A stretch of 43,881 nt of DNA from Azolla caroliniana (lineage: Eukaryota > Plantae > Polypodiophyta), in contig JBHGNT010000259.1 of NCBI GenBank assembly GCA_043228905.1, positions 1-43,881 of the forward strand, read 5' to 3'. The notes below the pieces were generated by a model. That model ran no database searches. It saw only the letters and a list, made by a program, of their open reading frames with translations, and was not told the origin of the DNA. Position numbers and translations under genes: made by a program. Of the stretch, positions 9,341 through 38,102 are shown in pieces; the first letter of the stretch is position 1, and each line of letters opens with the position of its first letter.

Positions 9341-9532
9341 TTTTATTCTCTGTCCCTTTGGATAGAGATCCGCTTCAATTTATAGCCTATTAATATATAT
9401 TTCCTAGGATATACACATCATGTCGGCCTATTGCTAGTTATGTACAGTGTGTTAGTTTGACTGCACACGTGTAAGTGCCGTTTCACGCGCCAAATTCTAT
9501 GATTCCACCTTAGGCCGGTTTTCTCCACGACA
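9341..9532 (-). repeat. Truncated U3 portion of a G1/G2-lineage LTR
   Basis: Reverse complement starts TGTCGTGGAGAAAACCGGCC and aligns patchily with the first ~190 bp of the 8099 LTR. Confidence 0.75.
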
Positions 9533-10990
9533 ACGTGAAGACTTGAAGACAGATGCTTTCACCCAAGCCATTGCAGCACAAAATGATCCCTCTCGAGCAT
9601 CTTTTTCACAGTCGCAACAACTAGGTACGGACTATCGACAATTCAAATGTCATGATGGATTACTATTCTTTAAGACTCTCGTGTATATTCCTAAAGGTTC
9701 TTGTCGCCGTCGAGTAGTCCAAAATTGTCATGACACATATATAGTTGGGCATTTCGGTAGTACTAAGACATTCGATTTAGTACAACAACCATTTTGGTGG
9801 CCCTGGATGCGACAATTTGTCGAAGATTTTGTTCGGACTTGGAATACATATTGCAGAGCAAAAATTCGAAGGCATCATCCATATGGTTTATTAGAGCCAT
9901 TACTAATTCCAAGCAAGCCGTGGCAATCCATGCTCTAGATTTCATCACAGATGTTCCAGTCTCTACGGGATTCAATGTGATTTTAACAGTAGTAGATCGA
10001 TATACAAAGATAGCTCATTTCCTACCATATACTAAGGAAATCTCCAGTGAAGAAATCGCCGAAACCATCATGCGTGAACTATGTCGACATCATGGCCTTC
10101 CCGATAATATCATCAGCGACCGTGGACCATAGTTCGTCTCGAAATTCTGGAAGCCCCTTTTTTAAATGCTCAAGGTCACTTGTAACCTCTCCTCCGGCTA
10201 CCACCCGCAAACCGACGGCCAAGCAAAACAAACAAATCAAACGTTGGATCAGTATTTTCAGTGCTTTCTAAGCTATCATCAGCATAACTGGGCGGATATT
10301 CTCCACTTTGCCGAATTTGCCTATAATAACTTTGTCCACTCATCGACTAAATTTATGCCATTTTATGCTTATACGGGTTGTCACCCTTGGTGGTGTGTAT
10401 TTGAAACCATACAGTTACCCACAAATCCTTGCGAAGAGGATCGTTTGGAGCGGTTATGCAAGATACAAGCTGATTTATCTACTCATCTACAACAAGCTCA
10501 ACAAACACACAAGGTTTACGTGGATCGTCATCGGCTTCCATCTAGTTTTAACATAGGAGATTGGGTATGGCTTCTATGACGACACATCAAGACTACTCGC
10601 CCATGCGAGAAGTTGGATTATTGGCGATTAGGTCCTTTCCGTATTATTGGAAAGATTAATGATGTCGCTTTTCGTCTCGATCTACCCCCGCAACTTCGCA
10701 TACATCTGGTATTTCATAGTTCTCTCCTCGAACCCTATGAAGACAGCATCATCCCAGGATGTATTCCACAATCTCCACCCCCGATCGAACTTGAAGATGG
10801 ACCTAAGTACGAGGTTGCCACCATCCTCGATTCCAAGATTGTTCGCAACAAGGTCTACTATTTAGTTGATTGGCTAGGATATAATCCCAGCGAGAGTACT
10901 TGGGAACCAATAGAGAATGTGACCAATGCTCGTGCTCTTCTTGAAGACTTCCATCATCAATATCTAAATAAACTGCGTCCTCAATCCAAA
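9533..10990 (+). pseudogene. Chromovirus (Tcn1/Tf1-like) integrase and chromodomain, copy A
   Basis: H..GHFG, DFITD.P, IISDRGP, YHPQTDGQ, GPF; chromodomain YEVATILDSKIVRNKVYYLVDWLGYNPSESTWEP. Confidence 0.92.
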
Positions 10991-11009
10991 ATGACATGTG
11001 ACATGATAG

Positions 11010-11399
11010 TGTCATGATATGACAAGACTCGAACCCATGACCTTATGTTACATGGTTTGAGCTCTTGACCATTACACTATCTATTATAATACATAAAATA
11101 TTATTTTTATTTAGGTTTTACTATTGAAAATTAATGTATATTCCAGATTTCTCAGGACTACTCCTGAGAACACTATAAACGGAGGCAGAAAGCATTATTT
11201 CCACGCGAGTCTTAAGCCTCCTAGCCTTCCTTGTATATTCTTCTCACATGATATATCGTTGTCATCATCATTTTCTCTCTCTCTCGCTTCCACTCTCTCT
11301 CTGTCCTTCTCTCAAGTGTTTCACACTCTCTATTCATGTTATTACTAATATTCCTCTCTTAGTACTAATTTCTTCTTTGTTTGAGTACTATTCCTGACA
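11010..11399 (+). repeat. Chromovirus copy A 3' LTR
   Basis: TGTCATG...CCTGACA; homologous to the LTRs at 26339 and 30711. Confidence 0.9.
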
Positions 11400-14835: not shown

Positions 14836-15442
14836 TGTTGGGATTTCGGTCCCTTTCGGATGGGATGGTCGGATATCGGAGATGAATGCCGACAAGCCCG
14901 GTTTCGGTTTCGGATCCGGATGACGAAGACCCCGGCTTCGGTGCCGGATGACGAATGTACCCGGAGAGCGATCCGGATGCAGGGACATATCCGTGAATAT
15001 GTTCGCTACGAGCCCCCTGAGGCTATAGTTGTAAATAGCCCAAAGTCATATAAGTATAAATATGACTTAGGGCAAACAGTTTTTCTGTTGCTTCTCATTT
15101 TTCTGTTTTTCCACTTTAGAGGAGTGAAGAGAGAGCAGCCGTGAGAGAGAGAGAGAGAGATAGAGCGCGAGAGAGAAAGAGGTAGACGCCTCTGTGTATT
15201 TCCGCCGCCTGTGGCGAGGACAGCGAGCTCAAGGTCGTCGCCTTGGAGCTCGTCATTGTATACTTCTCTGTATAGTGTTGTTTGGAGTCTAGTACTCCCG
15301 TGGTTTTTCCCGTTTAGGGTTTTCCACGTTAATTCCTGTGTATCGTGTCTTTCTCTGTATTTCCTATTTTCTGCTGCATTGATCCGCGATTACTCGGTTG
15401 TGGCCGAAGGAAGAAGGTGAATTGTAGCATCAATTCTCAACA
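14836..15442 (+). repeat. Young Copia 5' LTR
   Basis: TGTTG...CAACA; repeated at offset +4723. Confidence 0.97.
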
Positions 15443-15445
15443 AAC

Positions 15446-15457
15446 TGGTATCAGAGC
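15446..15457 (+). promoter_or_regulatory. PBS for tRNA-iMet
   Basis: TGGTATCAGAGC, 3 nt after the LTR. Confidence 0.95.
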
Positions 15458-15471
15458 GACTGTTGCAGAAA

Positions 15472-18400
15472 ATGGAAGGCGGCGGCAGCGGGCAGCCGAT
15501 GATGATGGTGCTGAATGCACAGAATTACGCCGACTGGAAGATCAAGATGGAGGATCTTCTGATTGTTCGGGACCTGTACGAACCGATTGACAGGTCGGAA
15601 ATACCGAAAGGGGTACTTGAGTCGGAGTGGAAGCTCCTGAACCGGAAAGCCGTAGCGACGATCCGACAATATGTCGACGTAAGCGTCCTACAACATGTGG
15701 CGAATGACACCAACGCATACGAGATGTGGAAGAAGCTGTCGGGCCTCTATGAGAGGAAGAATGCGTTGAACCGAACCTCCCTGATGAGGAAGATAGTGAA
15801 TCTCAAGTACCGGGACGGCGAGAGTATGGTGGAACACGTAAGCACGTTCATGGGATTCGTGAATCAGCTTGCGGCGATCAAGTTCCCGTTGGAGGATGCA
15901 ATGCAAGCCATCATCCTGATGTGTACATTGCCGGAAAGCTGGGAGAACTTGGTGGTGACTCTCAGCACCTCGTGCACCGAAGATAACTTGTCCTTACAAA
16001 CTGTAAAGACAAGTATTCTGAATGAAGAAGCGCGTCGGAGAGATAAGGAACCGGCCTCCGACCCGAAGATGCTGTTTACCGAATCGGATCGGGGAAGACA
16101 ATGGAACCGGAGTCCGCAAAGACGGGAGAAGTCGGGGACCCGGTCGCAGTCAAGAGGAAGGCCCACATGCTTCCACTGTGGGAAGCCGGGGCACTTCCGA
16201 AAGAATTGTCGGCATTACCGAAAAGACAACGGAGCCGACGACACCGACTCGAAGAAGTCACCGGAGAGAAACGGTGCATACCGGGGAGCCACGGACCGGA
16301 GAGGTTCGGATCGGCGAGGGCAAGACCGGAAAGGAACAACGGCACTCGCGGCAAGTGAGGAAGAAATCATGCTCATCACCGAAGAAGGTGAGCTAAACGT
16401 TGCCGGCGATGAGACGACCTGGGTGGTCGATTCCGGAGCATCGTTCCACCTGACCCCGGAGAGAAGATACTTCTCATCCTACACAGCCGGTGAGCATGGC
16501 TGTGTTCGGATGGGAAATGAAGGTACGTGCCGGATTGCCGGCATAGGAGACGTGTGGTTGACAACCCCGACCGGATGCAAAATGCTGCTGAAAGATGTCC
16601 GACACGTTCCGGAGGTCCGATTGAACCTGATTTCGGCCGGGAGGCTAGATGATGAAGGCTACACGGGTAGCATCCGGAATGGTGTCATGAAGTTCAGCAA
16701 GGGGAGCTTGATAGTGGTTCGGGCCCGGAAGGTCAACACACTGTACCTGATGAATGCCCGGTTATGTCCGGAAGAGCTGAATGTGGCAGCCGACACTGCC
16801 GGTGAGCTGTGGCACAAAAGACTGTGCCACATGAGTGAGAAGGGGATGAAGAGGCTTGCAAAAGACAACCTCATCCCAGTGAAGCACGTGCACCTGGAGA
16901 AGTGCACCGATTGCCTGGCCGGTAAGCAGAACCGAACCTCCTTCCACTCAAGGCCACCGACGAGACGTAGCGCACCATTGGAGTTGGTGCACACTGACGT
17001 GTGTCAGGTAGAGACGAAGTCACATGGCGGAGCCCAGTACTTCGTAACATTCATCGATGATCATAGCCGAAAACTGTGGACGGCACCGTTGAAGACAAAG
17101 GACCAAGTGTTGTCCGTCTTCAAAGAACTCCACGCGAGAGTGGAAAGGGAATCCGGCAAGAAGCTGAAAGCGATACGAGCGGATAACGGAGGGGAATACC
17201 GGGGGCAGTTCCAGGAGTACTGTCGCTCGAAGGGAATCCGGCTCGAGTTTATTGTGCCGAAGACGCCGGAACTGAACGGGCTGGCCGAGAGGATGAACCG
17301 GACCATAATGGAGTGGGTCCGGAGTATGCTGGCGCATGCGAAATTACCCAAGGGGTTTTGGGCTGAGGCAATGTCGACGGCGACATATGTGATAAACAGA
17401 TCACCCTCAGTTCCTTTGGACGGAGACACGCCGCAGAGAGTGTGGACCGGTAAGGAAGTGTCCTACCGGCATCTGAAGGTGTTCGGGTGTCTCGCATACG
17501 TGCATGTGGCAAAGGACCGGAGAGGAAAGCTAGATCCGAAGACCCGGCCATGCATATTCCTCGGTTACGGCGACGACGAGTTCGGCTACTGAGTATGGGA
17601 CCCGGTCGACAAGAAGATATTCAGGAGTCGAGACATCATCTTCATGGAGGACAAGACACTCGCCGACTGGGAGTCGGAGAAGAAGATGAAGAGCTCCAAG
17701 TCGATCGGTGAGGATCAACTCTACGAGGAGCAGTCCCGACCGGCAAGGGACCGGTTAACACTCGAGGATCCGGCCGAAGACGGTGAAGAAACAGAACCGG
17801 CCGAAGAAGATGAAAATGATACTGGAACCGGCCCCGATCCCGAAATGGATTCGGATGAAGAAGAAGAATCGGAAGAACCGGTTACCGAAGCTCCGGAACG
17901 GAGATACCCTCTAAGAGAGAGAAGGGCCCCCCGGAGATTTCCGGAACCAGAGCACGTGTTGCTAACCGACGAGGGGGAGCCGGAGAGCTTTGAAGAAGCA
18001 AAGCATGACACCCAGAGCCGCAGGTGGTTGAGTGCCATGCAGGACGAGATGGATTCCCTGCATGAGAACCACACATATGAACTTGTGGAGTTGCCGAAAG
18101 GAAAGCGGGCACTGCGAAACAAGTGGGTGTTCAAGCTGAAACCGGGAGATGCCGGAAACCCCCCGAGATACAAAGCCAGGATCGTGGTGAAGGGGTTTCA
18201 GCAGAAGAAGGGCGTCGACTTCGACGAGATATTTGCCCCGGTAGTGAAGATGACCTCCATCCGGACGGTGCTGAGCATAGCGGCAAGCATGGACCTCGAG
18301 GTAGAACAGATGGACGTGAAGACGGCATTCCTTCACGGTGACCTCGATGAAGAGATCTACATGCAGCAACCGGAAGGATTCGAGAAGAAAGGGAAGGAGC

Positions 18401-19548
18401 ACCTGGCATGCCGATTGAAGAAGAGCCTTTACGGACTGAAGCAGGCTCCCCGGCAATGGTACCGGAAGTTCGACTCCTTCATGACCGACGAAGGGTACCT
18501 CAAAACGCAGTCCGACCACTGCGTGTTTGTGAAGGAGTTCGAAGGAGGAGACTCTCTAATACTCCTCCTGTACGTGGACGACATGTTGATCGTCGGACGG
18601 GACCAGGTCAAGATACGGATGCTGAAGAAGGCTCTTCACCGAACCTTCTCAATGAAGGACCTGGGTCCGGCGAGGCAAATACTAGGGATGCACATCATCC
18701 GGGACCGGAAGAAGAAGCAGTTGTGGCTGTCACAGGAGAAGTACGTGACAAAGGTGCTTCAACGGTTCAACATGTCGGAAGCAAGACCGGTCGGATCGAC
18801 CCTCCCGGCAAACTGCAAGCTGACCAGCAAGCAAAGTCCCAAGACAAAGGCTGAAAAGGAGGATATGATGGAAGTGCCGTATGCCTCAGCCGTCGGGAGC
18901 TTGATGTACGCCATGGTGTGTACGAGACCGGACATAGGATATGCAGTCGGAGTGGTGAGCCGGTACATGAGCAATCCCGGCAAAGAGCACTGGAACGCGG
19001 TCAAGTGGATACTCCGATACCTGAAGGGCACGGCAAACGTGTGCCTCCGATTCGGCTCCGGTAAGCCCGAACTCGAAGGCTTTACTGATTCTGATATGTC
19101 GGCTGATGCAGATACCAGCCGGTCCACATCAGGGTATGTGATGACGTATGCAGGGGGAGCTGTTTCGTGGCAGTCGAGGCTGCAGAAGACGGTTGCGTTG
19201 TCAACCACGGAGGCGGAGTACATGGCGGCTGTTGAAGCCGGCAAGGAAATAATATGGATGAAGGACTTCATTAGAGAGCTCGGTATCCGGCAAGAGGAGT
19301 ACCGACTCTACTGCGACAGTCAGAGTGCCATCCACCTTGCGAAGAACGCAGCCTATCACTCCCGGACGAAGCACATCCAGCGAAGATATCACTGGATCCG
19401 GGAAAGGATAGAAGACAAGGAGTTCGTGCTGACGAAGATCCACACCGACGAGAACGGGTCGGATATGCTGACCAAGGTGCTCACACCCGACAAGCTGGAA
19501 GCATGCCGCAAGAGGATCGGATTGGAAAGACATCCCATGCCGAAGTGA
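15472..19548 (+). pseudogene. gag-pol: Copia gag-PR-IN-RT-RH polyprotein with a single in-frame TGA at 17590-17592
   Basis: CFHCGKPGHFRKNC, WVVDSGAS, ADNGGEY, LLLYVDDML, TKHIQRRYHWIRE. The two ORFs share one frame (GY*VWDP). Confidence 0.95.
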
Positions 19549-19558
19549 AGGGGGAGTT

Positions 19559-20165
19559 TGTTGGGATTTCGGTCCCTTTCGGATGGGATGGTCGGATATC
19601 GGAGATGAATGCCGACAAGCCCGGTTTCGGTTTCGGATCCGGATGACGAAGACCCCGGCTTCGGTGCCGGATGACGAATGTACCCGGAGAGCGATCCGGA
19701 TGCAGGGACATATCCGTGAATATGTTCGCTACGAGCCCCCTGAGGCTATAGTTGTAAATAGCCCAAAGTCATATAAGTATAAATATGACTTAGGGCAAAC
19801 AGTTTTTCTGTTGCTTCTCATTTTTCTGTTTTTCCACTTTAGAGGAGTGAAGAGAGAGCAGCCGTGAGAGAGAGAGAGAGAGATAGAGCGCGAGAGAGAA
19901 AGAGGTAGACGCCTCTGTGTATTTCCGCCGCCTGTGGCGAGGACAGCGAGCTCAAGGTCGTCGCCTTGGAGCTCGTCATTGTATACTTCTCTGTATAGTG
20001 TTGTTTGGAGTCTAGTACTCCCGTGGTTTTTCCCGTTTAGGGTTTTCCACGTTAATTCCTGTGTATCGTGTCTTTCTCTGTATTTCCTATTTTCTGCTGC
20101 ATTGATCCGCGATTACTCGGTTGTGGCCGAAGGAAGAAGGTGAATTGTAGCATCAATTCTCAACA
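19559..20165 (+). repeat. Young Copia 3' LTR
   Basis: Same length as, and apparently identical to, the 5' LTR. Confidence 0.97.
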
Positions 20166-20393: not shown

Positions 20394-21468
20394 TGTTGTG
20401 TGGTTTTTCACACACAATATTAAAACTATGTAAAAATAATAATAATGAAATAATTATTTTAGATTAGATTAGTGGCTTGTTATAGAGAAAATAGAACTAT
20501 GATTTATCCCATATAGATAGGAAACTTAAGGCCCTTGCTATATAAGCACATTGAGATCCCTCATTTTTCATTTGTGCTAAGAGCATTTTGGCCACTTTGT
20601 CTAGATGGATGAATGTGGCCAAATTCCCAAAACCGAGTGGCAATAAAATGGAACCGCCTAGTAAGCAAACCGGAACCGGCCGGAAAGCAAACCGGAACCG
20701 GCCAGTAAGCAAATCGGAACCGGCGACCGGACGGGCTGTACGTGGACCGGACGGATTGGATGGGTGGCGATCGAGACGGATAGATGATAGGATCATGTGG
20801 CTAATTAAAGTGACGTAAAGAAAACTAAAGTAAAGGTCATGTGGACGGTCGCATGCAACTAAAAGAAAAAAGCCATGCAACTAAAAGAAAAAGTCATGCA
20901 ACTAAAATGGATGCAGCTAAAAGTAGAGGCCATGCAACTAAAAGTGGACATGCAAAGTAACATTGAAGGCTATGATCAATGGAGAACTCCATATAAAATT
21001 CCATTTTTTTTTCCTACAAAAGGATTCTCTCTCTCAATTTTTATTTTCTTTTCCTTCTTAGCTCCCTTATCTTATCGTAGCCATATCTCTCATAAACCCT
21101 AATTTTCCCTACGGAAGTCATAACACTCAAAAACCCTAATTTTCCCTACGGAAGCCATATCTCTCATATAACCTAATTCTAATTTTCCCTACGGAAGCCA
21201 TAACACTAAAAAGCCCTAATTTTCCCTACGAACGCCATATCTCTCAAAAACCCGTAATTTTTCTTTTCTATTAAACTTAGTAAACCTAAACTTCTGAATC
21301 CCAATCTTGGGACATATTGTAATTTCTTTTCCTTTGCTAATGAAAAATTATTAAATTTCTTCTTTCCATTAATTGTTAAAAATATAAACGCACGAATGTG
21401 ATGTCCTCTGATCGGAGGCCCTTGGGTCCTGCCTCAAGTTCACGTATCCTCGTTGTATTATCGTGACA
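20394..21468 (+). mobile_element. Gypsy-lineage solo LTR X with internal tandem repeats
   Basis: TGTTGTG...CGTGACA; perfect 4-bp TSD CCGA; U5 motif GGGTCCTGCCTC; CATGCAACTAAAAG repeats and ~36-bp CCCTAATTTTCCCTACGGAAG repeats. Confidence 0.8.
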
Positions 21469-23614: not shown

Positions 23615-24620
23615 CGCTAATTAGCTACTAAGCTACACCTGAGCTAACTAGCTATTCTTCTAGACTATGACACTAGCTAATTAGGTACCTCTGAGCTAAT
23701 TAGCTACTTCACTTAGTTATGGTACTCGCTAATTAGCTACTCTTTGTCAATATGGTAGCAACTAATTAGCTACTCTACTAAAGTATGGTAGTAGCTAATT
23801 AGCTACTTAGCTAAAGTATGCTACTAGCTAATTAGCTACTATAACTAAAGTATGGTAGTAGCTAATTAGCAACCACTTAGCTAATTAGCTACTATAACTA
23901 AAGTATGGTAGTAGCTAATTAGCAACCACTTAGCTAATTAGCTACTATACTAAACTATGGTAGTAGCTAATTAGCTATTGTACTAAACTATGCTAGTAGC
24001 TAATTAGCTACCATTTAGCTAATAATCTATTGTATTAAACTATGGTAGTAGCTAATTAGTTGCCACTTAGCTAATTAGCTACTTAGCTAAAGGATGGTAG
24101 TAGCTAATTAGCTACCACTTAGCTAATTAGCTATTGTACTAAACTAGGGTAGTAGTTAATTAGCTACCATTTAGCTAATAAGCTACTATATTAAACTATG
24201 GTAGTAGCTAATTAGCTACCACTCAGCTAATTAGCTACTGTATTAAACTATGGTAGTAGCTAATTAGCTACTAAGCTAAAGTATGGTAGTAGCTCATTAG
24301 CTACCGCTTAGCTAATCAGTTACTGTACTAAACTATGGTAGTAGCAAATTAGCTACCACTTAGCTAATTAGCAATTGTACTAAACTATGGTAGTAGCTAA
24401 TTAGCTACCATTTAGCTAATTAGTTACTCAACTAAACTATGGTAGTAGCTAACTAGCTACTCAGGTAAAGAGTATGGTAGTAGATAATTAGCTACCACTT
24501 AGCTAATTAGTTACTCAACTAAACTATGGTAGTAGCTAATTAGCTACTCAGCTAAAGTATGGTAGTAGCTAATTAGATACCACTTAGCTAATTAACTACA
24601 TGTTAGCTATTTAGCTACTA
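23615..24620. repeat. Minisatellite built on the palindrome TAGCTAATTAGCTA (mixed ~33 and ~52 bp units)
   Basis: Dozens of AGCTAATTAGCT cores with AAACTATGGTAG and CCACT linkers. Confidence 0.95.
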
Positions 24621-26632
24621 CACTACAACCATAACAACTAAATAGTTCCTACACTGTATACGGCTTACCTAATTAACAAAGATGTAACTAATTAGCTACA
24701 TTATGGTCACAAGCAGCAATTTTACCTGTTAGTTTTCTCCACTCATCTGGGAGACTTGTACTGTAATCCCCCAAATAGAATGCAGCTATGCGACCAGGCA
24801 TATTGAAAACAAACGATACGATATGTGTGTTGGCATGGTTGTAGGTGAACCAACAAAGTAGCAGATTTGTCCTCTACACGTAATCCGCAAGCTATGCAAC
24901 GTGCTTGAACAGTCATTATACCATTTCCTGGTTCTCGTTGATTTGGTAAGGGAGCAAGAATGTTTAGGTCCAATTCTTGTCTGCTCCTTACCATCCCCTC
25001 CACAAAATGTAGTTGCTTCTTAAGGCAGCTAACTACTTGTTCTTGACGGGAGTATTGTTCCTTCAATGTAGCCGAAATTTTCTAATTAATTATTCCTTAA
25101 TGAGGAAGATACAACAACAAGAAACAAGAATCATTAACTTACTTGTAGCTTGTCCAAATTGTAATCAGCGATAATATTTACACTTAGAAGCTCTAGGTTC
25201 ATTGAAAGAACTTGGATCTCTGTCTGCAGTTGAATTTTTCGTTGGGGATCCACCGAGCCCTCAATTTCAAGCTCATGTTGAGCAACCTGTTTCAGATAAT
25301 GCCTCACTAGCACATTTTTATGTACATGTTATTTATAACATATTACATACTAACAAAACAATAGGTACTTGAATCTTATTTTTGATTTTTGTAACTGCCA
25401 AAGTGACTTTGCTCTCCATCGCAGCAGTCAATGTTGCTTTCTCTAAATCAGTCTTAAAAAACTCCAATGCCTCACAGGCTTCATGGACATTTTTTAGCAT
25501 ATAGTTAATCAATGTCTCACCTGTATCATCGACATTGTATTTCATTGTGTGTCAGTGTCGCATATACTTGCATGTTTGTTGGGAGTGGGTAGTCGCATCA
25601 TCAACTGCCATGCTCCAAAATATTGCCATTTTTTGTTGCAAGCTCCCCATGTTCCAGCATCTTTGTACCGATGCCTCACCATAAATTGCCCAAGCTACCC
25701 TATACATTTTAGGGTCACGAGATTCCATCGTTGTTTTCCAATACTCGTATGCAAAAACTCTAGCAAATGAAACGGACAACTCGTTGATTGGGATCTTCTC
25801 ATGTACCTTCTGGTGTAGTCTCATGTAGTCACCATACATGCTTGAGCTTGACCTTGCCTTTCACTCTAGGCACTTTATTTACTGACATCCAGTCTACATC
25901 ACTAATTAATCTATCTGTTAGAACAATTGGGTCAATACCCTCGAGCGACAGACCATATATGTTGTGAAAGTCCTCCTTTGTTTCGCAAAATTTTATGAAG
26001 TTCGGCACTTTAGGATAAGGAGGAACAGGCCACCTGAAATAGAAAATCAATAATCAGAATTGGTGCAGAAACAGAATTTTTAATGTGAATTTGGTGCAAA
26101 ATTACAACACTTTGAGACAATAATCTAAAATTTGTAATCTATCCTTTTCAGCATGTATCAGAAATCAACCAGTTAAAAAATCAGAAACCTTAATCAGAAT
26201 TTCTCATGAGAATTGGTGCAAAATTACAACACATTGCGACAGTAATCAGAAATTTGTAACCAAAAACCCTAAACCACTTAAGGAAAACAAAAACCCTAAT
26301 CCTCACTACGAAATTCTGTCAATAAAAAACACACCTACTGTCATGATATGGCAAGACTCGAACCCATGACCGTATGTTACATGGGTCAAGCTCTTCACCA
26401 TTAGATTATATGTTGTAATACAAAAAATATTATTTTCATCTAAGTTTTACTATAGCAAATTGATGTATATTTCGATTTCTCTGGAACATTCTAGAAACTT
26501 TAGGAGTACTCCGGAGAACACTATATAAGGAGGCACAAGGCATTATTGCGAACCAAATCGGTTCAATGCCAGTCTTAAGCCTCCTAGCCATCCTTGTATA
26601 TTCTTTTCATTTAATATGTTGTTGTCATCAAT

Positions 26633-26668
<36 letters not shown>

Positions 26669-26762
26669 TCTCTTGAGTGTTCTACACCCTCTTTCCCTCT
26701 TAGTACTAATATTCATCTCTTAGTACTAATCTCCTCTATGTCTCAGTACTATTCATAACAGT

Positions 26763-26774
26763 TTGAACAGATTT
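26763..26774 (+). promoter_or_regulatory. Self-priming PBS
   Basis: TTGAACAGATTT is 11/12 complementary to LTR 26555-26566, about 27 nt after TATATAA. Confidence 0.75.
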
Positions 26775-26908
26775 CACACCTCTTTCCTCTTCTTCCTTTT
26801 ATCTTCTTACGTTTCCCTCCCTTCATACTAATATCTTAGTCCTCTTTCCTCTCATCCTATGGCCACTATTAGTGCTCAAGAATCTCAATTCGCTTTCTCG
26901 GAGCTGTA

Positions 26909-29900
26909 ATGCTTGAAAGAGAAGTCCCTTGCTTTGGAACAAGAAAATCAACGGTTGTAGGGGGATCTTCAGCAAATCTCCTTAGAAAAGCAGCTGACGC
27001 GCAACATGGGGAACTAGCGTTACACGTGCAACAACTTGAAGCAACTATAGTAGCGATGCAACAAGCACCCAATACACAAGGGATTCATAAAGAACCAAAG
27101 ATTGGCCTTCCCATGAAATTTGATGGAACGCGATCACAATTTAGAGGATTCCTTAATCAGGTACGATTAGTCATTAAAATGCATCCTTCCCGATATCCCA
27201 CCGATGCATCACGAGTGGGTTTAATAGGCACGTTGTTAGGTGGCTCAACTTTGGCATGGTTCGCTCCGTTGTTAGAAAATGAATCTCCTTTACCAAACAA
27301 TTTTCAAGAGTTTTTAAGTGATTTTAGTGGTTCCATTCCCTCTAAGCAAGTTAGCAATGTGTTCTTAGCCCAAGTAATAGTTAGTACTAAAAGTACCTCT
27401 CCAGTACATGTCTCAGCACTCCTAGATTCCGGAGCTAATTGTTGCTTCATGGATAAGAATTTTGCCCAAGCTGATCAGATATGCCTAAGAAAACTCCCGT
27501 GTCCAACGTCTGTAGTAGTTATTGATGATCATCCCATTGTTTTCGGAAATATCATAGAAGAGTCAGAGCCCGTTAATATTATCCAAGATAATTTAGCGTG
27601 TGTAGTATCATTTAATATAATTAGTATCCCAGAACATCCCATTGTTTTGTGATTACCATGGTTTGAATTACATAACCCAGACATAGATTGGAGAACAAGC
27701 GAAATCCGGTATCGACAAACCTGACATTCTACTCATAAGACAACCTACATCAGTTGTGTGACGAAGGACGCAAGGAAGAAATGTTTCTTTTCGTAGTATT
27801 AGTAAAAACCCTTTAGACCCACTAAAGAGGAGTCCATCGTTCAACTTCCAGAGAAGTATCGTCATTATGCCGATGTGTTCGATAAAGTACAAGCCAATAC
27901 GCTTCCTCACCATCGACCATATGATTGCCCCATCGATTTAAAACTGGGAAAAGCGCCACCATGGGAACCGATCTACAATTTGTCACCAACCAAGCTAGAA
28001 GTCCTTCGAGCCTATATAGAGGAGAATTTGGCAAATGGTTTCATTCAACATTCGAAATCTCCAGCCGACGCACCCATTTTCTTTGTTCAGAAAAAGGATG
28101 GATCACTTCCTCTCGTCGTAGATTATCATGGCTTGAATAAGGTCACCATCAGGAAATGGTATGCAATTCCCCATATCTCAAGTCTTTTAGAATGGATCAA
28201 TGGTGTAAGGTTCTTCACAAAGATGGACTTATGAGGAGCATATAACCTCTTACGGATCCGATGAGGAGATGAATGGAGGACTGCGTTTCGCACTAGATAT
28301 GGGCACTTCGAGTATATGTTCATGCCATTCGGCCTCGCTAATGCGCCAACAGTCTTCTAGCACATGACCAATGATATATTCCAAGATGTCTTGGATGTTT
28401 GTTTGATCATCTATTTGGATGATGTACTGGTTTATTCAAAGACCCAAGAAGAGCATGATTCTCATGTACTGTTAGTACTAAAATGACTTCAAGAACATGA
28501 TCTTTATGAAAAGCTGGAAAAATGTAGTTTTGGGTGCAACCAGGTAGAATTTTTGGGCTATCTCCATCGATCCAGCTAAGGTCAAAACGGTGGTAGAGTG
28601 CCAGACTCCACGTTCGTTGCGAGATGTGTAATGTTTTTTAGGCTTTGCCAATTTCTACTGTAAGTTTATACATGATTACTCAAAGCTTGTTCTGCCTCTC
28701 ACACAGCTTACCAGGAAGGGAAAATTGTTCGTTTGGTTTGAAGAAACAGACATGGCTTTTGATAGCCTTAAGAAGGCATTTACATCAGCTCCTATTCTAG
28801 CTCATCTTGATCTAGAAAACCATTCATCATTGAAGCAAACACATCGGATTTCACCTTGGGTAGCATTCTATCACAACAAGGCGATGATGAAAAGCTACAT
28901 CCTGTGGCTTTTCACTCACGCAAGTTGGACGCCGCCGAAATAAACTATGAAATTCATGATAAGGATCTATTAGCAATAGTGGACTCTTTTACCCAATGGA
29001 GGCATTTTCTAGAGGGATCTTCTCTTCAGGTCACCGTATTCAGTGATCACAAAAATCTTGACTACTTCTAAAATACTTGTGTATTAAATCGACATCAAGC
29101 ACGGTGGGCCCAATTTCCCACTCGTTTCGACTTCAAGATTACATATCGTCTCGGGAAACAACAATGGAAGGCGGACACGTTATCACGGCGCTCGTATCTA
29201 GCACTGCGTCCTGGTGAGCCAACATTTGATAATCAAAAGCAAGTAATCCTAGGACCGACACAACATCAAGCAATGCAGGTCTTTGGTATGCCCTTGAATT
29301 CCCACGTAATTGATACCATACATGAAGACTTGAAGACACTCGAGCATCTTGTTCCCAGTCGTAACAACCTCATGATGGATTACTACTCTTTAAGAAACTG
29401 TTGTATGTTCCTAATGGTTCTTCTCTCCTTCGAGTAGTCCAAAACTATCATGACACATATACAACCAAGCATTTTGGTAGTACTAAAACATTAGATTTAG
29501 TACAACGATCATTCTGGTGGCCCCATATGCGACAATTTGTCAAACATTTTGTTTAGACTCGTGATACATGGTGCAGAGAAAAAAGGCAAAGGCATCATCC
29601 ATATGGTTTATTAGAACCATTACCATTTCCAAGCAAGCCGTGGCAATCCATTGCTCTAGATTTCATCACAAATATTCCGGTCTCCAAGGGATTCGATGCG
29701 ATCTTAACAATAGTAGATCGATATACGAAGATGACCCATTTCCTGCCATGTACTAAGGAAATCTCCGGTGACGAAACTATTGAAATTGTCATGCGTGAAG
29801 TATGTCGGCATAATGGCCTTCCCGATAGTATCATCAGCGACTGTGGACCACAATTTGTCTCAAAATTATGGAAACACCTCTTTAAAATGCTCAAGGTCAC

Positions 29901-30690
29901 TTGTAACCTTTCCTCCGGCTACTACCTGCAAACAAACGGCCAAGCAGAATGAACAAATCAAACGCTAGAGCAGTATCTTCGGTGCCTTCTAACTTATCAT
30001 CAAGATGATTGGACGGATATTCTCCACTTCGCCGAATTTTCATATAATAACTCTATCCACTCATCGACAAAGGTTACACTATTTTATGCTTATGTGGGTT
30101 GTCACCCCCGGTGGTGTGTATTTGAAACCCCAGAGTTACCCACAAATCCTTGCGAAGAGGATCGTTTGGAGTGGTTATGCAAGATACTAGCAGATTTATC
30201 TACTCATCTACAACAAGCTCAACAAACACGCAAGGTTTATGTTGATCGTCATCGGCTTCCATTCAGTTTTAACATTAGAGATTGGGTATTGCTACTACGA
30301 CGACACATCAAGACTACTCGCCCATGCGAGAAGTTGGATTATTGGCGATTAGGTGCTTTCTGTATTATCGGAAAAATTAATGATGTCGCTTTTCGTCTCG
30401 ATCTACCTGCACAACTTTGGATACATCCGGTGTTTAATAGTTGTCTCCTCGAACCCTATCAAGACAGCAACATCCCAAGTCTTATTAAACAACCTCCACC
30501 CTCGATCGAACTTGAAGATGGACCTGAGTACGAGGTTGCCGCCATCCTCGATTCCAAGATTGTTCGCAACAAGCTCTAATATTTAGTCGATTGGCTAGGA
30601 TATAGTCCTAGTGAGTGTATTGGGGAATAGAGTATGTGACTAATGCTCGTGCTCTTCTTGAAGACTTCCATCATCAATATCTAGACAAAC
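26909..30690 (+). pseudogene. gag-pol: Chromovirus gag (partly deleted), protease, RT, RNase H, integrase and chromodomain
   Basis: PMKFDGTRSQFRGFL, LLDSGA, PIFFVQKKDG, YLDD, AFHSRKL, YEVAAILDSKI; many stops. Confidence 0.92.
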
Positions 30691-31599
30691 TAGGTCCTCA
30701 AGGGAGCTAGTGTCATGATATGTCAAGTCTCAAGCCCATGACCTTATGTTATATGGGTTGAGCTCTTCACCATTAGACTATATGTTGTATTACGAAGAAT
30801 ATTATTTTCATCTAAGTTTTGCTATAGAAAATTGATGTATATTCCAAATTTCTTTGGAATATTCTAGAAACTTCAGGAGTACTCTTGAGAACACTATAAA
30901 AGGAGGCACAAGGCATTATTTCGAGCCAAATCGGTTCAACGCCAGTCTTAAGCCTCCTAGCCATCCTTGTATATTCTTTTCACATAATATATCGTTGTCA
31001 TCAACATATTCTCTCTCTCTCTCTCTCACTCTCTCTTTCCTTCTCTCAAGTGTTCTACACCCTCTATTCCTCGTAGTACTAATATTCATCTCTTAGCACT
31101 AATTTCCTCTTTGGCTCAATACTATTCTTGACACCTGCTGCTACACCCAGATCTTCGATACATCCTTGTTTGGGACTCCAACGACTTCGTCCTATTCAAT
31201 TTTTGGGAAAGGTGAATAGGCACCAAAGTTACAGATAGTTATCTGAAAGGAAAAAAATAAAAAATTTATTAGGTAACTAACGTACATGGACGAGGATCGA
31301 ACTAGTCGTGTGTTGTAGCTCTAAAGGTGTAATGTCGATCTCAGAGTTTTTGTGCTGCTGCAGGAGCTTCATCTGGGTTCGTGGTCATAGTACTCCATCG
31401 GTTTGGAGTTTAAACTCGAACTCAGGATTATCAAGAATTTGATGACATTCAAGTCAACCTTAGATGATGGAACTATTCCTCAAGTTCCACTACATCCGAA
31501 ACCAAAGTTCAAATATTTGAGTATTCTCATAAATTAAATGACATGTATTTAACTAATAAAACATAAAATTTCGTAAACCATCATTATTATTTGCCCATA

Positions 31600-35286: not shown

Positions 35287-35445
35287 GATGCCCAGATGGA
35301 TGGAGACCAGGTGGTCATGGGTTCAACCCCTACATTCCACAATGGCATCGCACAGTGGCATCTAGTGAAAGATATTATATATATATATATATATGCCGCC
35401 TTCCATCTCTCTGGTTCCACGTCAGCACACGGGCTTGACTGCTGA

Positions 35446-38102
35446 AGTATCTGGAATCAGTGTGGACCTAGGTCTCTTCTCCGCATCCGTCTTTGTCTAG
35501 GCTCACTGGCCCTTGTTGCATCCTCCTCCGGCTAGGCTAACTCATCATTTTCTTGGATTGGTCTCGGCCGATTTCGTCTTCCTCACCCATTGTGGTTTCA
35601 TCTTTGGCCGCCTCACCGGTCTCATCTTCCCTTTCACACACTTTGGCCTCAGGCCATGTCCTCTCACCACCACCTTCCTTCTCTACGGTCTTATGTTGCC
35701 ACGTCGGCCGAACCGTTGAACTCTTCGGATTCGGTGTGGAGGTACCACTTCGTCCGCACTTCATTGCATCGTCGATTCTCGTTCTCCCGCCACCACCTTC
35801 CATATCTCTGATCTCACGTCGTCTCTCGAGCCCGATTGCCGAAGTCTCCGGATCCAGTGTGAGGAGACACCTAGGAACGTCCTTCGTTTCTCCGCCTCGA
35901 TGCCACCTTCCCTCTCTCCAGTCTCACATTGCCACGTCGGCCGAACCGCCCAAGTCTCCAGAAACGGTATGGAGGGATCTCTCCGTCCGACCTCCAACTA
36001 GTCCTTGTCCTCATCATGGGCATTCCCTCGATCTATCTAGTGTCACGTCGGCTCTCGGGCCTGACTGCCGAAGTCTTTGAATATGGTGTGGGGAATGATA
36101 TCATGACTTCGCCCTCCGACGGCTCGTCCATGGCCACCGACTCCTCAATGGTGTTGTCAGTAGCTATTTCTTCTTCGATCGCGCAAGCCTCGCCTGGGCT
36201 TCCTTCTCCAAAACTGTGCCCAAAACCATCAGTCTCTTTCCGAATCCGACCTCTTCCTCGGTCAGTCTTCCTCCACAAGTCCAGAGGGCGTCTTGCTCCA
36301 CACCCGCTCCCGTGGTACCGTGGTACCATCCTCTGGCCTCCACATCGTTTTCAAGAAAACACCTCGGTCTCCATCCTCCAACTCCTTCGTATCCTTCCTT
36401 TCGGCCTTAACTTTCAACTTCTAGCTCTCGTATGCGTGATTTACCAAGGCTTCTATGTCCAGCACCGACGAACCTTCCCGCTTTCAAGATTACTTGGTAA
36501 GGCCATTCGCACCATCGGCATCCTCGAGTATGACTCTGATGGCCTCCATTCCCTTCGATTGGTCTCCTTCGGAAATCATGAAGGCCTCCTCCACCCCCAC
36601 CAATGTTTGAGTCCGCCCCGACAGTATAGCAAACGATTCTCAACCACTAGGAACCACACGTATAGCGCTTTGGTGGGTGCTTGTCGATGACTTGTGCCAG
36701 CTCCATTCCTTCGATCCCTCATGCCCGTGCATCTTTTGTACCATTTGCCAAACACCCTAGCCTCATTGCTTCTTATACTTCCCCTTGATCGAACCCGGCA
36801 TCGTAGGCTTTAAAATTTTTGGGACTCCGTCCCCGGTTAACTAGTTGACTTCTTCGATCGCGCTCTCAACGGCTTCTGAGCTGTTTCTCGTCATCCCTTA
36901 TCCACGCTTGTCCATCATCGCCTTCGACCTTGCCTTTACCACGAAGTCCTCTCCATCCACCTCCATCCTCCCTTTCCGCCTTTCACGTTGGGTTCACCAA
37001 AGATGTCGCGGAAATCCACGTGCAGGTGTCAGATCAAGCGGGATCACCGGAATCACGGACAGGGGGGAGATGGATACCGGAATGCATTTTCCTCTAGGGC
37101 CGGTTACACCGGTTGTGGCCCCAACTGGGACGATCCTGGATGCGAGCCGGAAGAAACCGAACCGGATAGATATGGATGCATTCTAGAAGCAACCGGATTG
37201 AAGATAGGGAGAGCACACGCACACACGCTGGGTCTCACATGTACAAAGAAGGGAAGACCAGAAATCATGCGGCCCGACTGGGACCTGGTATATCCAAGAC
37301 AACGAGTCTCTGGACTGAAAAGAGGAGACACGCTGCGACTAAGAACGACTCAACACACACACACATCACAAGCACATCTGGACAGAACGAAAACCCAAAG
37401 ACATCAACACAAACCTATGCACACCAAAGTTTTCTCATGTGTATTTATAAGGGAGACAAGATACAATGCCGATTTCAGGCCGGTCCAATACCAAACAGAT
37501 ACAACAACCGTCTACAAGCAAGCTCCAATCGGGGAGCACTCAGGCTCGCCTACTCAAGTGGAAGCCTTGCGCTGAAGACAGGCCTTCTTACCGAACCACA
37601 CCAGTTGTTTGCTGCCAAGCCGCCAGTCAGGGAGCACTCGGGCTCGCCTACGCGAGTGGGGTCTTGCACAGGAGACAGAACTACGAACGGAAACCCTCAG
37701 AGCACAAGAACTCAAAACCATGCAACCCTAACAGAAGGGAAACAATGCACCCTAGTATATGAACTAACAAGACTCCACTCAAAAGAGAAACCCAACCCAA
37801 CGACCACGATGAAGAAGACCCCAAATGAAACCCTAAAGTAGAAACCCTAAGGAAAATAGGAAGAAGAGAAAATTACCAAACCCTAGATCCAAGTGGTATA
37901 CCCTCCTAACTCAAAATGGGCAACCCCTTCACAAAAGATCCCTCCCTCCTCTTATAGTCAAGGAGGGAAGGACGCTACAATGTGGGATTAATATCCCCTA
38001 TTTTTTAAATACATTTCCTAATGTACATGTGCATATGTTGCACATCAGCGACTTTGCCCATTCGATCCAGTTTTCTCACAGTAGCCGGAAATCTTTACGA
38101 CA
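35446..38102 (-). mobile_element. G4 Gypsy-lineage 5' end: LTR 37004-38102, tRNA-Trp PBS, decayed gag-like region
   Basis: Minus strand TGTCGTA...CGCGACA, then TCTT, then TGGTGAACCCAACGTGAA; inserted in Copia gag. Confidence 0.8.
36982..36999 (-). promoter_or_regulatory. PBS for tRNA-Trp
   Basis: 17/18 match to the complement of the plant tRNA-Trp(CCA) 3' end as recalled (TGGTGAACCCGACGTGAA). Confidence 0.8.

Follow-up and report, generated by a model that had tools for sequence, protein, structure and literature searches.

The window, i.e., the whole stretch of 43,881 nucleotides analysed here, raises the question of why a protein-coding LTR retrotransposon should carry, at the outer tips of its LTRs and in antisense orientation, the A and B boxes of a tRNA-type Pol III promoter.

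Reversed tRNA boxes in three related LTRs

The window consists of repeat-rich plant DNA, in which three related LTRs, all on the plus strand, were located at positions 11010–11399 (LTR a), 26339–26760 (LTR b) and 30711–31133 (LTR c). LTRs b and c are the 5' and 3' LTRs flanking one degraded Ty3/gypsy chromovirus (26339–31133, 4795 bp); LTR comparison gave 88.9% identity (K2P 0.119) between them, and the element is bordered by a near-perfect 5-bp target duplication (CCTAC/CCTGC). Its interior (26873–30710, plus strand) holds a broken gag-pol region, in which Pfam recognized Ty3 capsid-like, RNase H, integrase core and SH3 segments, together with a decayed polypurine tract. LTR a is the 3' LTR at the end of a second, truncated copy, of which the integrase zinc finger, core, SH3 domain and chromodomain were found in pieces at 9456–11017 (plus strand, Pfam). 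Taken together, the Pfam matches in the chromovirus copies showed the Ty3/gypsy domain order with a C-terminal chromodomain (Chromo, E = 5.7e-15, with SH3_Tf2-1 and rve). The window also holds a very young Ty1/copia element at 14836–20165, with two identical 607-bp LTRs, a 5-bp target duplication and one reading frame that has a single stop codon between integrase and reverse transcriptase; the named matches of its protein were to seed plants, at 50–68% only. A tandem array with a 52-nt period and many palindromic TAGCTAATTAGCTA units lies at 23622–24704, and degenerate repeats with periods of ~120 and 37 nt lie at 35399–36094 and 21062–21290, respectively.

The boxes were located using patterns that we take to be the general Pol III consensus (A box, TRGYNNARYGG; B box, GGTTCRANYC). 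As a preliminary description of this DNA had claimed, a minus-strand A/B module was found in all three LTRs, and the distance from T8 to G52 was 44 nt, i.e., tRNA spacing, in 3/3. In LTR b, the B box (tRNA positions 52–61) at 26355–26364 is intact, the variable-loop motif (tRNA positions 44–48) at 26368–26372 reads CGGTC, and the A box at 26398–26408 has one mismatch, with the predicted tRNA +1 at 26415. In LTR a, the A box (11069–11079), AGGTC (11039–11043) and the B box (11026–11035) are all intact, with 0 mismatches in either box. In LTR c, the A box (30770–30780) has 0 mismatches and AGGTC is present at 30740–30744, and the B box (30727–30736) has decayed to 3 mismatches. The B boxes that had been singled out in LTRs a and b are thus both without mismatch. 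The A box of LTR c, previously regarded as the cleanest, is equalled by that of LTR a, which carries the sole fully intact pair of boxes, and the AGGTC motif that had been ascribed to the module was present in LTRs a and c, with CGGTC in its place in LTR b. Sites with at most one mismatch numbered two in the window (LTRs a and b), versus a mean of 0.0 over 100 block shuffles. At 3 mismatches there were four sites versus 1.87 expected, so that LTR c is by itself not sufficient.

Occurrence and conservation among relatives

Relatives were fetched through an alignment of 39 integrase-chromodomain proteins, with the last frame of 9456–11017 as the query, a procedure that is blind to the LTR sequence. 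The resulting 76 loci represent the best 80 of 130 confirmed stretches; an LTR start was located in 70 of the 76 (6 were without one), with at least 100 nt of LTR in 66 (4 were shorter). Every one of the 49 ingroup loci belongs to one of 15 assemblies in a single accession block, so that they may represent one host genus. A head was scored as passing when both boxes together had at most 2 mismatches at a spacing of 43 or 44. By this rule, 39 of the 52 ingroup heads passed on the minus strand (43/52 at 3 mismatches), compared to 0/52 on the plus strand, 0/92 at LTR positions 141–280 and 0/17 among outgroup LTR heads. The A and B boxes therefore stand in order, on one strand and at tRNA spacing, which is the arrangement of a type 2 Pol III promoter, and these counts bear out the proposal that a protein-coding chromovirus lineage carries a tRNA-derived module resembling a SINE head.

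Passing members were found in 10 of 16 ingroup sequence clusters, and protein identity to the query was as low as 56–59% among the passing families. Nine of the 52 heads failed at more than 3 mismatches: L039 and L060 are rearranged copies, and others have kept the B box, with an A box that is worn or displaced. Family F14 failed in both copies, which have the B box alone. Over 330,198 bases, 45 pattern matches were found, all on the minus strand and 42 of them at LTR tips; one of the remaining matches is a module with a deleted tip, and two are off-target. In a tree of the protein region, built from the fetched loci only, 50 rows were separated from 17 at a 99/95 branch, and the module-bearing rows form one side of this branch, with two nested losses. 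In a viral collection, no relatives were found by protein, and the single pattern match there was unrelated and lacked the module.

Across 21 subfamily representatives, T8, R9, A14, R15, T16, G18, G19, A44–Y48 and R52–C61 are kept, with T47 and T54 invariant, and C71, C72 and A73 are retained in 14–15 of the 21. U33 was present in 4/21 and a purine at position 37 in 7/21. The positions at which the pattern is degenerate vary freely (57 is A in 12 and G in 9 representatives; 59 is A in 11, G in 5 and T in 5). Among 14 hand-picked family representatives, the mean pairwise identity was 0.77 in the B box, 0.80 at 44–48 and 0.64 in the A box, versus 0.37 upstream, 0.48 after the A box, 0.39 at 27–43, 0.38 at 49–51 and 0.36 at 62–73, the box values being inflated by anchoring on the best matches and by the hand-picking of representatives. 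The main refutation test of the preliminary description was whether the boxes are more conserved than the neighbouring U3, and it failed to refute (0.64–0.80 versus ~0.37 in the flanks). In 17/21 representatives, G52 is preceded by an A box at 43 or 44 nt; no other spacing between 36 and 54 occurs in more than 2/21, and a spacing of 55 occurs in 4/21. The distance from the B box to the LTR end varies about five-fold (11–63 nt). For the B box of LTR a, no variant at 12% or more was listed in two DNA runs of the host group, but within this one family the terminal 16 nt were about as invariant, so that the comparison does not set the two apart. Overall, this sequence evidence indicates that the module is real and under selection.

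The same cannot be said of the stems of a cloverleaf. In 18 representatives, 47/126 acceptor, 37/90 anticodon, 60/90 T and 43/72 D positions were paired, which did not exceed column shuffles (p = 0.13, 0.33, 0.50 and 0.09, respectively); Watson-Crick pairs alone brought the D stem slightly above the shuffles, with an uncorrected p of 0.015 among related rows. ARAGORN detected no tRNA in the window or in 60 of the 76 loci, and a window-wide Rfam scan detected no tRNA. When six heads were tested singly against the Rfam tRNA model RF00005, one scored 15.8 bits (gathering threshold 29) and five, including LTR a, were missed, so that the covariance-model signal by which the preliminary description was to be judged is weak and sub-threshold, and absent from LTR a. 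A functional tRNA gene was rejected on these grounds, i.e., no ARAGORN match, a sub-threshold RF00005 score and stems that are not kept. The pattern is that of a promoter recognized at the DNA level, comparable to SINE heads and Helenus elements, rather than that of a folded tRNA.

The poor cloverleaf and likeness to a SINE head noted earlier hold for the stems, but the subfamily of the window folds as one long hairpin (z −1.8 to −2.9). A hairpin common to the lineage was considered and rejected, as the fold is strong in this subfamily and in L010 only. At 11026–11060 in the window (subfamily F0), the spacer complements the B-box side, giving a 16–20 bp hairpin and a second imperfect B-like box; this complementarity is partly present in L026 and L019.

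Promoter layout, priming and the proposed role of the module

In LTR b, a predicted Pol II promoter with a TATA box at 26522–26527 (plus strand) lies 114 nt inside T8, and across the lineage the TATA box lies 95–255 nt inside T8. A repeat of three units, GAAnnTTCnnGAA, at 26484–26496 matches a pattern that we assume to represent the heat-shock element; LTR c carries such a repeat at 30857–30874, ahead of a TATA box at 30895, and in LTR a the repeat is deleted. The three matches to this pattern in the window are confined to LTRs b and c, between the module and the TATA box. Within the first 330 nt, perfect three-unit matches were found in 33/48 ingroup LTRs, versus 11/2400 shuffles and 1/16 outgroup LTRs, which suggests that the promoter is heat-inducible in part of the lineage. 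The GAA/TTC arrays in U3 that resemble heat-shock elements reach up to 6 overlapping matches and are absent from families F6–F14.

The primer-binding site after LTR b (26761–26774, plus strand) is decayed, but of the self-priming type and without the tRNA-type TGG. It is complemented by a predicted self-primer at the RNA 5' end (26555–26566, plus strand), as judged from the perfect 12-nt match in less decayed relatives. Such a match, between the site after the LTR and a site 32–33 nt after the TATA start, was found at 9 of 13 ingroup LTR/internal junctions, in five families and in three sequence versions that change together; the junction search was restricted to [AG]TTTG starts, the junction assigned to L022 is spurious, and a contig end truncates the match in L017. 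No Ty3-type primer site, which would pair with the 3' end of the same tRNA, was present at these [AG]TTTG junctions. Judged from their sequences, the elements self-prime, which weakens any role of the module in pairing with a tRNA primer. Self-priming and the heat-shock element between module and TATA box are features that go beyond the preliminary description. In L004, L024, L033 and the window (26549–26566), a short inverted repeat spans the predicted start of Pol II transcription, with a mirror copy of the self-primer immediately upstream. A ACTCGTCG-type motif is conserved upstream of the polypurine tract at most ingroup loci and encodes a TRxTRR-like integrase tail.

We propose that the reversed tRNA boxes at the LTR tip likely serve, at the DNA level, as a binding site for TFIIIC, which is predicted to protect the Pol II promoter of the same element; we give this reading an even chance. 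That a TFIIIC-type site, acting either as a barrier or as a promoter, is what selection keeps we regard as probable. The fuller proposal is tentative: a fern lineage of autonomous, self-priming Pol II chromoviruses may have captured a tRNA promoter a single time and kept it as a portable TFIIIC barrier, such that each insertion would bring an insulator keeping a heat-shock-inducible promoter open in heterochromatin. In such a scheme, an ancestor of the lineage would have captured either a tRNA gene or the head of a tRNA-derived SINE, and purifying selection would have acted on the boxes after the capture. TFIIIC would bind the A and B boxes. Given the outward orientation of the module, TFIIIB would assemble interior to it, on the side of the heat-shock element and the TATA box, and any Pol III at the 5' LTR would transcribe outward from the element. 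The bound factors would hold the edge of U3 open and block silencing or read-through from the flanking DNA, which would be relevant to an element that is probably directed to heterochromatin by its chromodomain; Pol III RNAs, short and either outward or antisense, would be a possible by-product. Plain TFIIIC binding tolerates varied spacing between the A and B boxes and is not known to need the AGGTY loop; a TFIIIC site therefore accounts for neither the strict spacing nor the retention of this loop. It also counts against a barrier that, at the 3' LTR, such a complex would stand in front of Pol II transcribing the element itself. In yeast, assembled Pol III complexes are described as stopping Pol II read-through (PMC4228148), and the moss chromovirus RLG1 is described as located in heterochromatic islands (PMC7466625); it is from yeast and from RLG1 that we infer the predicted binding, barrier action and heterochromatin targeting.

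The boxes might instead form a working Pol III promoter whose RNA is the selected product, either a short antisense RNA over the 3' LTR tip, the polypurine tract and the integrase end or an RNA running outward from the 5' LTR, which tunes silencing or copy number. We consider this unlikely. Both boxes are kept at gene-like spacing, and in 10/21 representatives a T4 run lies 60–76 nt from the predicted start; however, the first T4 lies at 94–142 nt in 6/21, is missing for ~400 nt in 5/21 and falls inside the module in 4/21, so that no terminator position is shared, and no common fold was found on the tRNA strand (z < −2 in 3/21 only). Since neither terminator position nor RNA structure is kept, insulation would fit better than a defined antisense RNA. 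Poly(A) RNA runs from a related species placed 57 and 34 reads on 26200–26900, and 8 and 6 reads on 10900–11170. Over the LTR head, coverage did not exceed 6 reads; these had loose ends that continued into other sequence, and in most of them the first mate mapped to the minus strand. Libraries of this kind are uninformative on short uncapped RNA.

A second alternative is that the module acts within the element's RNA, where U3, complementary to the D, variable and T loops of a tRNA, would pair with a packaged tRNA for strand transfer or packaging. The position in U3 and the antisense orientation agree with what is described for Ty3 (PMC5371799) and HIV-1 (PMC6468702), and what is kept coincides exactly with the universal tRNA loops, AGGTY among them. 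Against this stand the perfect self-priming matches at 9 of the 13 [AG]TTTG junctions and the free variation of positions 49–51, 59 and 62–65, which a single partner tRNA would constrain. Because the kept segments also correspond to universal tRNA loops, this explanation is weakened and not removed, and we rate it as distinctly unlikely.

There is a slim chance that the module is a tRNA or SINE remnant carried along neutrally close to the integrase attachment end, or that its conservation reflects a hairpin or the site of an unrelated Pol II factor. The weak Rfam signal in one of six heads, the long hairpin of the window's subfamily and the loss of the A box in some families are what such an explanation predicts. 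It is largely refuted, as we read them, by the conservation and the box counts: the boxes reach 0.64–0.80 identity versus 0.36–0.39 in the spacer and in the stretch from B box to LTR end, the spacing is fixed while the distance to the LTR end varies five-fold, and the hairpin is missing from most families. Finally, it is very improbable that the boxes, by attracting Pol III factors, serve as a landing pad for insertions of the same or other elements beside existing LTRs, as the 14 of 56 head-containing LTR matches that stop early do so at no recurring distance from T8 (a comparison of low power, the contigs being collapsed repeats) and 60 of the 76 loci had no tRNA gene by ARAGORN.

Comparison with known elements

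The closest known system, on present comparison, is that of the Helenus TRIMs (TRIMp3), of which the elements described here are not members. As described in PMC10886601, Helenus elements have tRNA-derived sequence in both LTRs, for which a SINE2 insertion is the proposed origin, with the A and B boxes kept and the cloverleaf mostly lost; they are short and non-coding (311–1263 bp), and Pol III is proposed to make their genomic RNA. The same source states that "not a few LTRs" hold tRNA-like parts, in an analysis restricted to TRIMs, and argues that the autonomous partners of TRIMs must use Pol II (PMC10886601). The elements described here share with Helenus the tRNA-derived A and B boxes in the LTR and the mostly lost cloverleaf. 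Unlike Helenus, they encode gag-pol, reach 4795 bp, and have a TATA promoter and a self-primer instead of a tRNA-complementary primer-binding site, and their module lies antisense at the U3 tip, where it cannot drive genomic RNA. Cassandra, which had been offered as the parallel, and Ajax are likewise TRIMs with a captured small-RNA-gene Pol III promoter in the LTR, Cassandra in plants; in contrast to the module described here, their boxes are 5S-derived and drive the RNA of elements that are non-autonomous (PMC10886601, PMC12786077), so that Helenus is the closer of these comparisons. The bipartite primer-binding site of Ty3 and the tRNA-Lys3-like stretch at the U3-R border of HIV-1 also provide a tRNA-complementary U3 (PMC5371799, PMC6468702). 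Ty3 and HIV-1 are primed by that very tRNA, whereas the elements described here self-prime, and what they keep is the set of box positions common to all tRNAs, not the sequence of any single one.

In the full-text literature searched, with most subscription journals and Repbase notes outside its scope, no description of such a module was found, and the available portions of PMC13570524, PMC3350952, PMC12786077, PMC8282616 and bioRxiv 2022.12.06.519325 contain no such LTR module. Pol III promoters in LTRs are known from short non-coding TRIMs, where they drive the element's RNA; the lineage described here is protein-coding and keeps a Pol III-type promoter where position and direction rule out this use. 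Since the module cannot drive element RNA, selection must serve another job. SINE-borne TFIIIC insulators are known, in which A and B boxes, or B boxes, act on neighbouring Pol II transcription and chromatin. The tDNA and ETC barriers of yeast, described as acting on their surroundings in the same way (PMC4228148), also resemble what is predicted here, but these are host loci, and the SINE insulators belong to non-LTR elements, whereas here the predicted site is built into an autonomous LTR element. If the module is a barrier, it would suggest, in a form open to testing, how chromodomain elements can remain expressible after insertion into silent chromatin, and TFIIIC sites would be scattered over the host genome.

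With Tcn1 chromoviruses (Tf1/sushi), the elements share a chromodomain integrase, self-priming and a 5-bp target duplication (PMC2864245, PMC6317226). By eye, they also share an R-start motif and a TTTG-type primer site with SM-Tcn1 of Selaginella, which, unlike them, has no reversed boxes at the LTR tip (PMC2864245, supplement S3). Self-priming is described as the rule in Tcn1, at 83% of 1500 elements (PMC6317226). By eye, the LTR of SM-Tcn1 contains a 12-nt stretch that complements the site following the 5' LTR, although the available text of PMC2864245 reports no evidence of self-priming. In the available text of PMC2864245 and PMC6317226, Tcn1 is reported from mosses and Selaginella, not from ferns, and no tRNA-like LTR module is mentioned; a PCR survey is described as finding no Tcn1-like elements in ferns (PMC2864245), and a later survey as finding Tcn1 in mosses and club-mosses only (PMC6317226). 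The host is likely a fern, and Tcn1-like elements thus likely occur in ferns, because the host exon in L001 is closest to fern KEG, although this is one gene on a possibly collapsed contig. The exon (L001, 1528–2352) lies beside an LTR of the closest family, and its KEG identity is 84% to Adiantum, 64–65% to liverwort and Selaginella, and 54–64% to seed plants.
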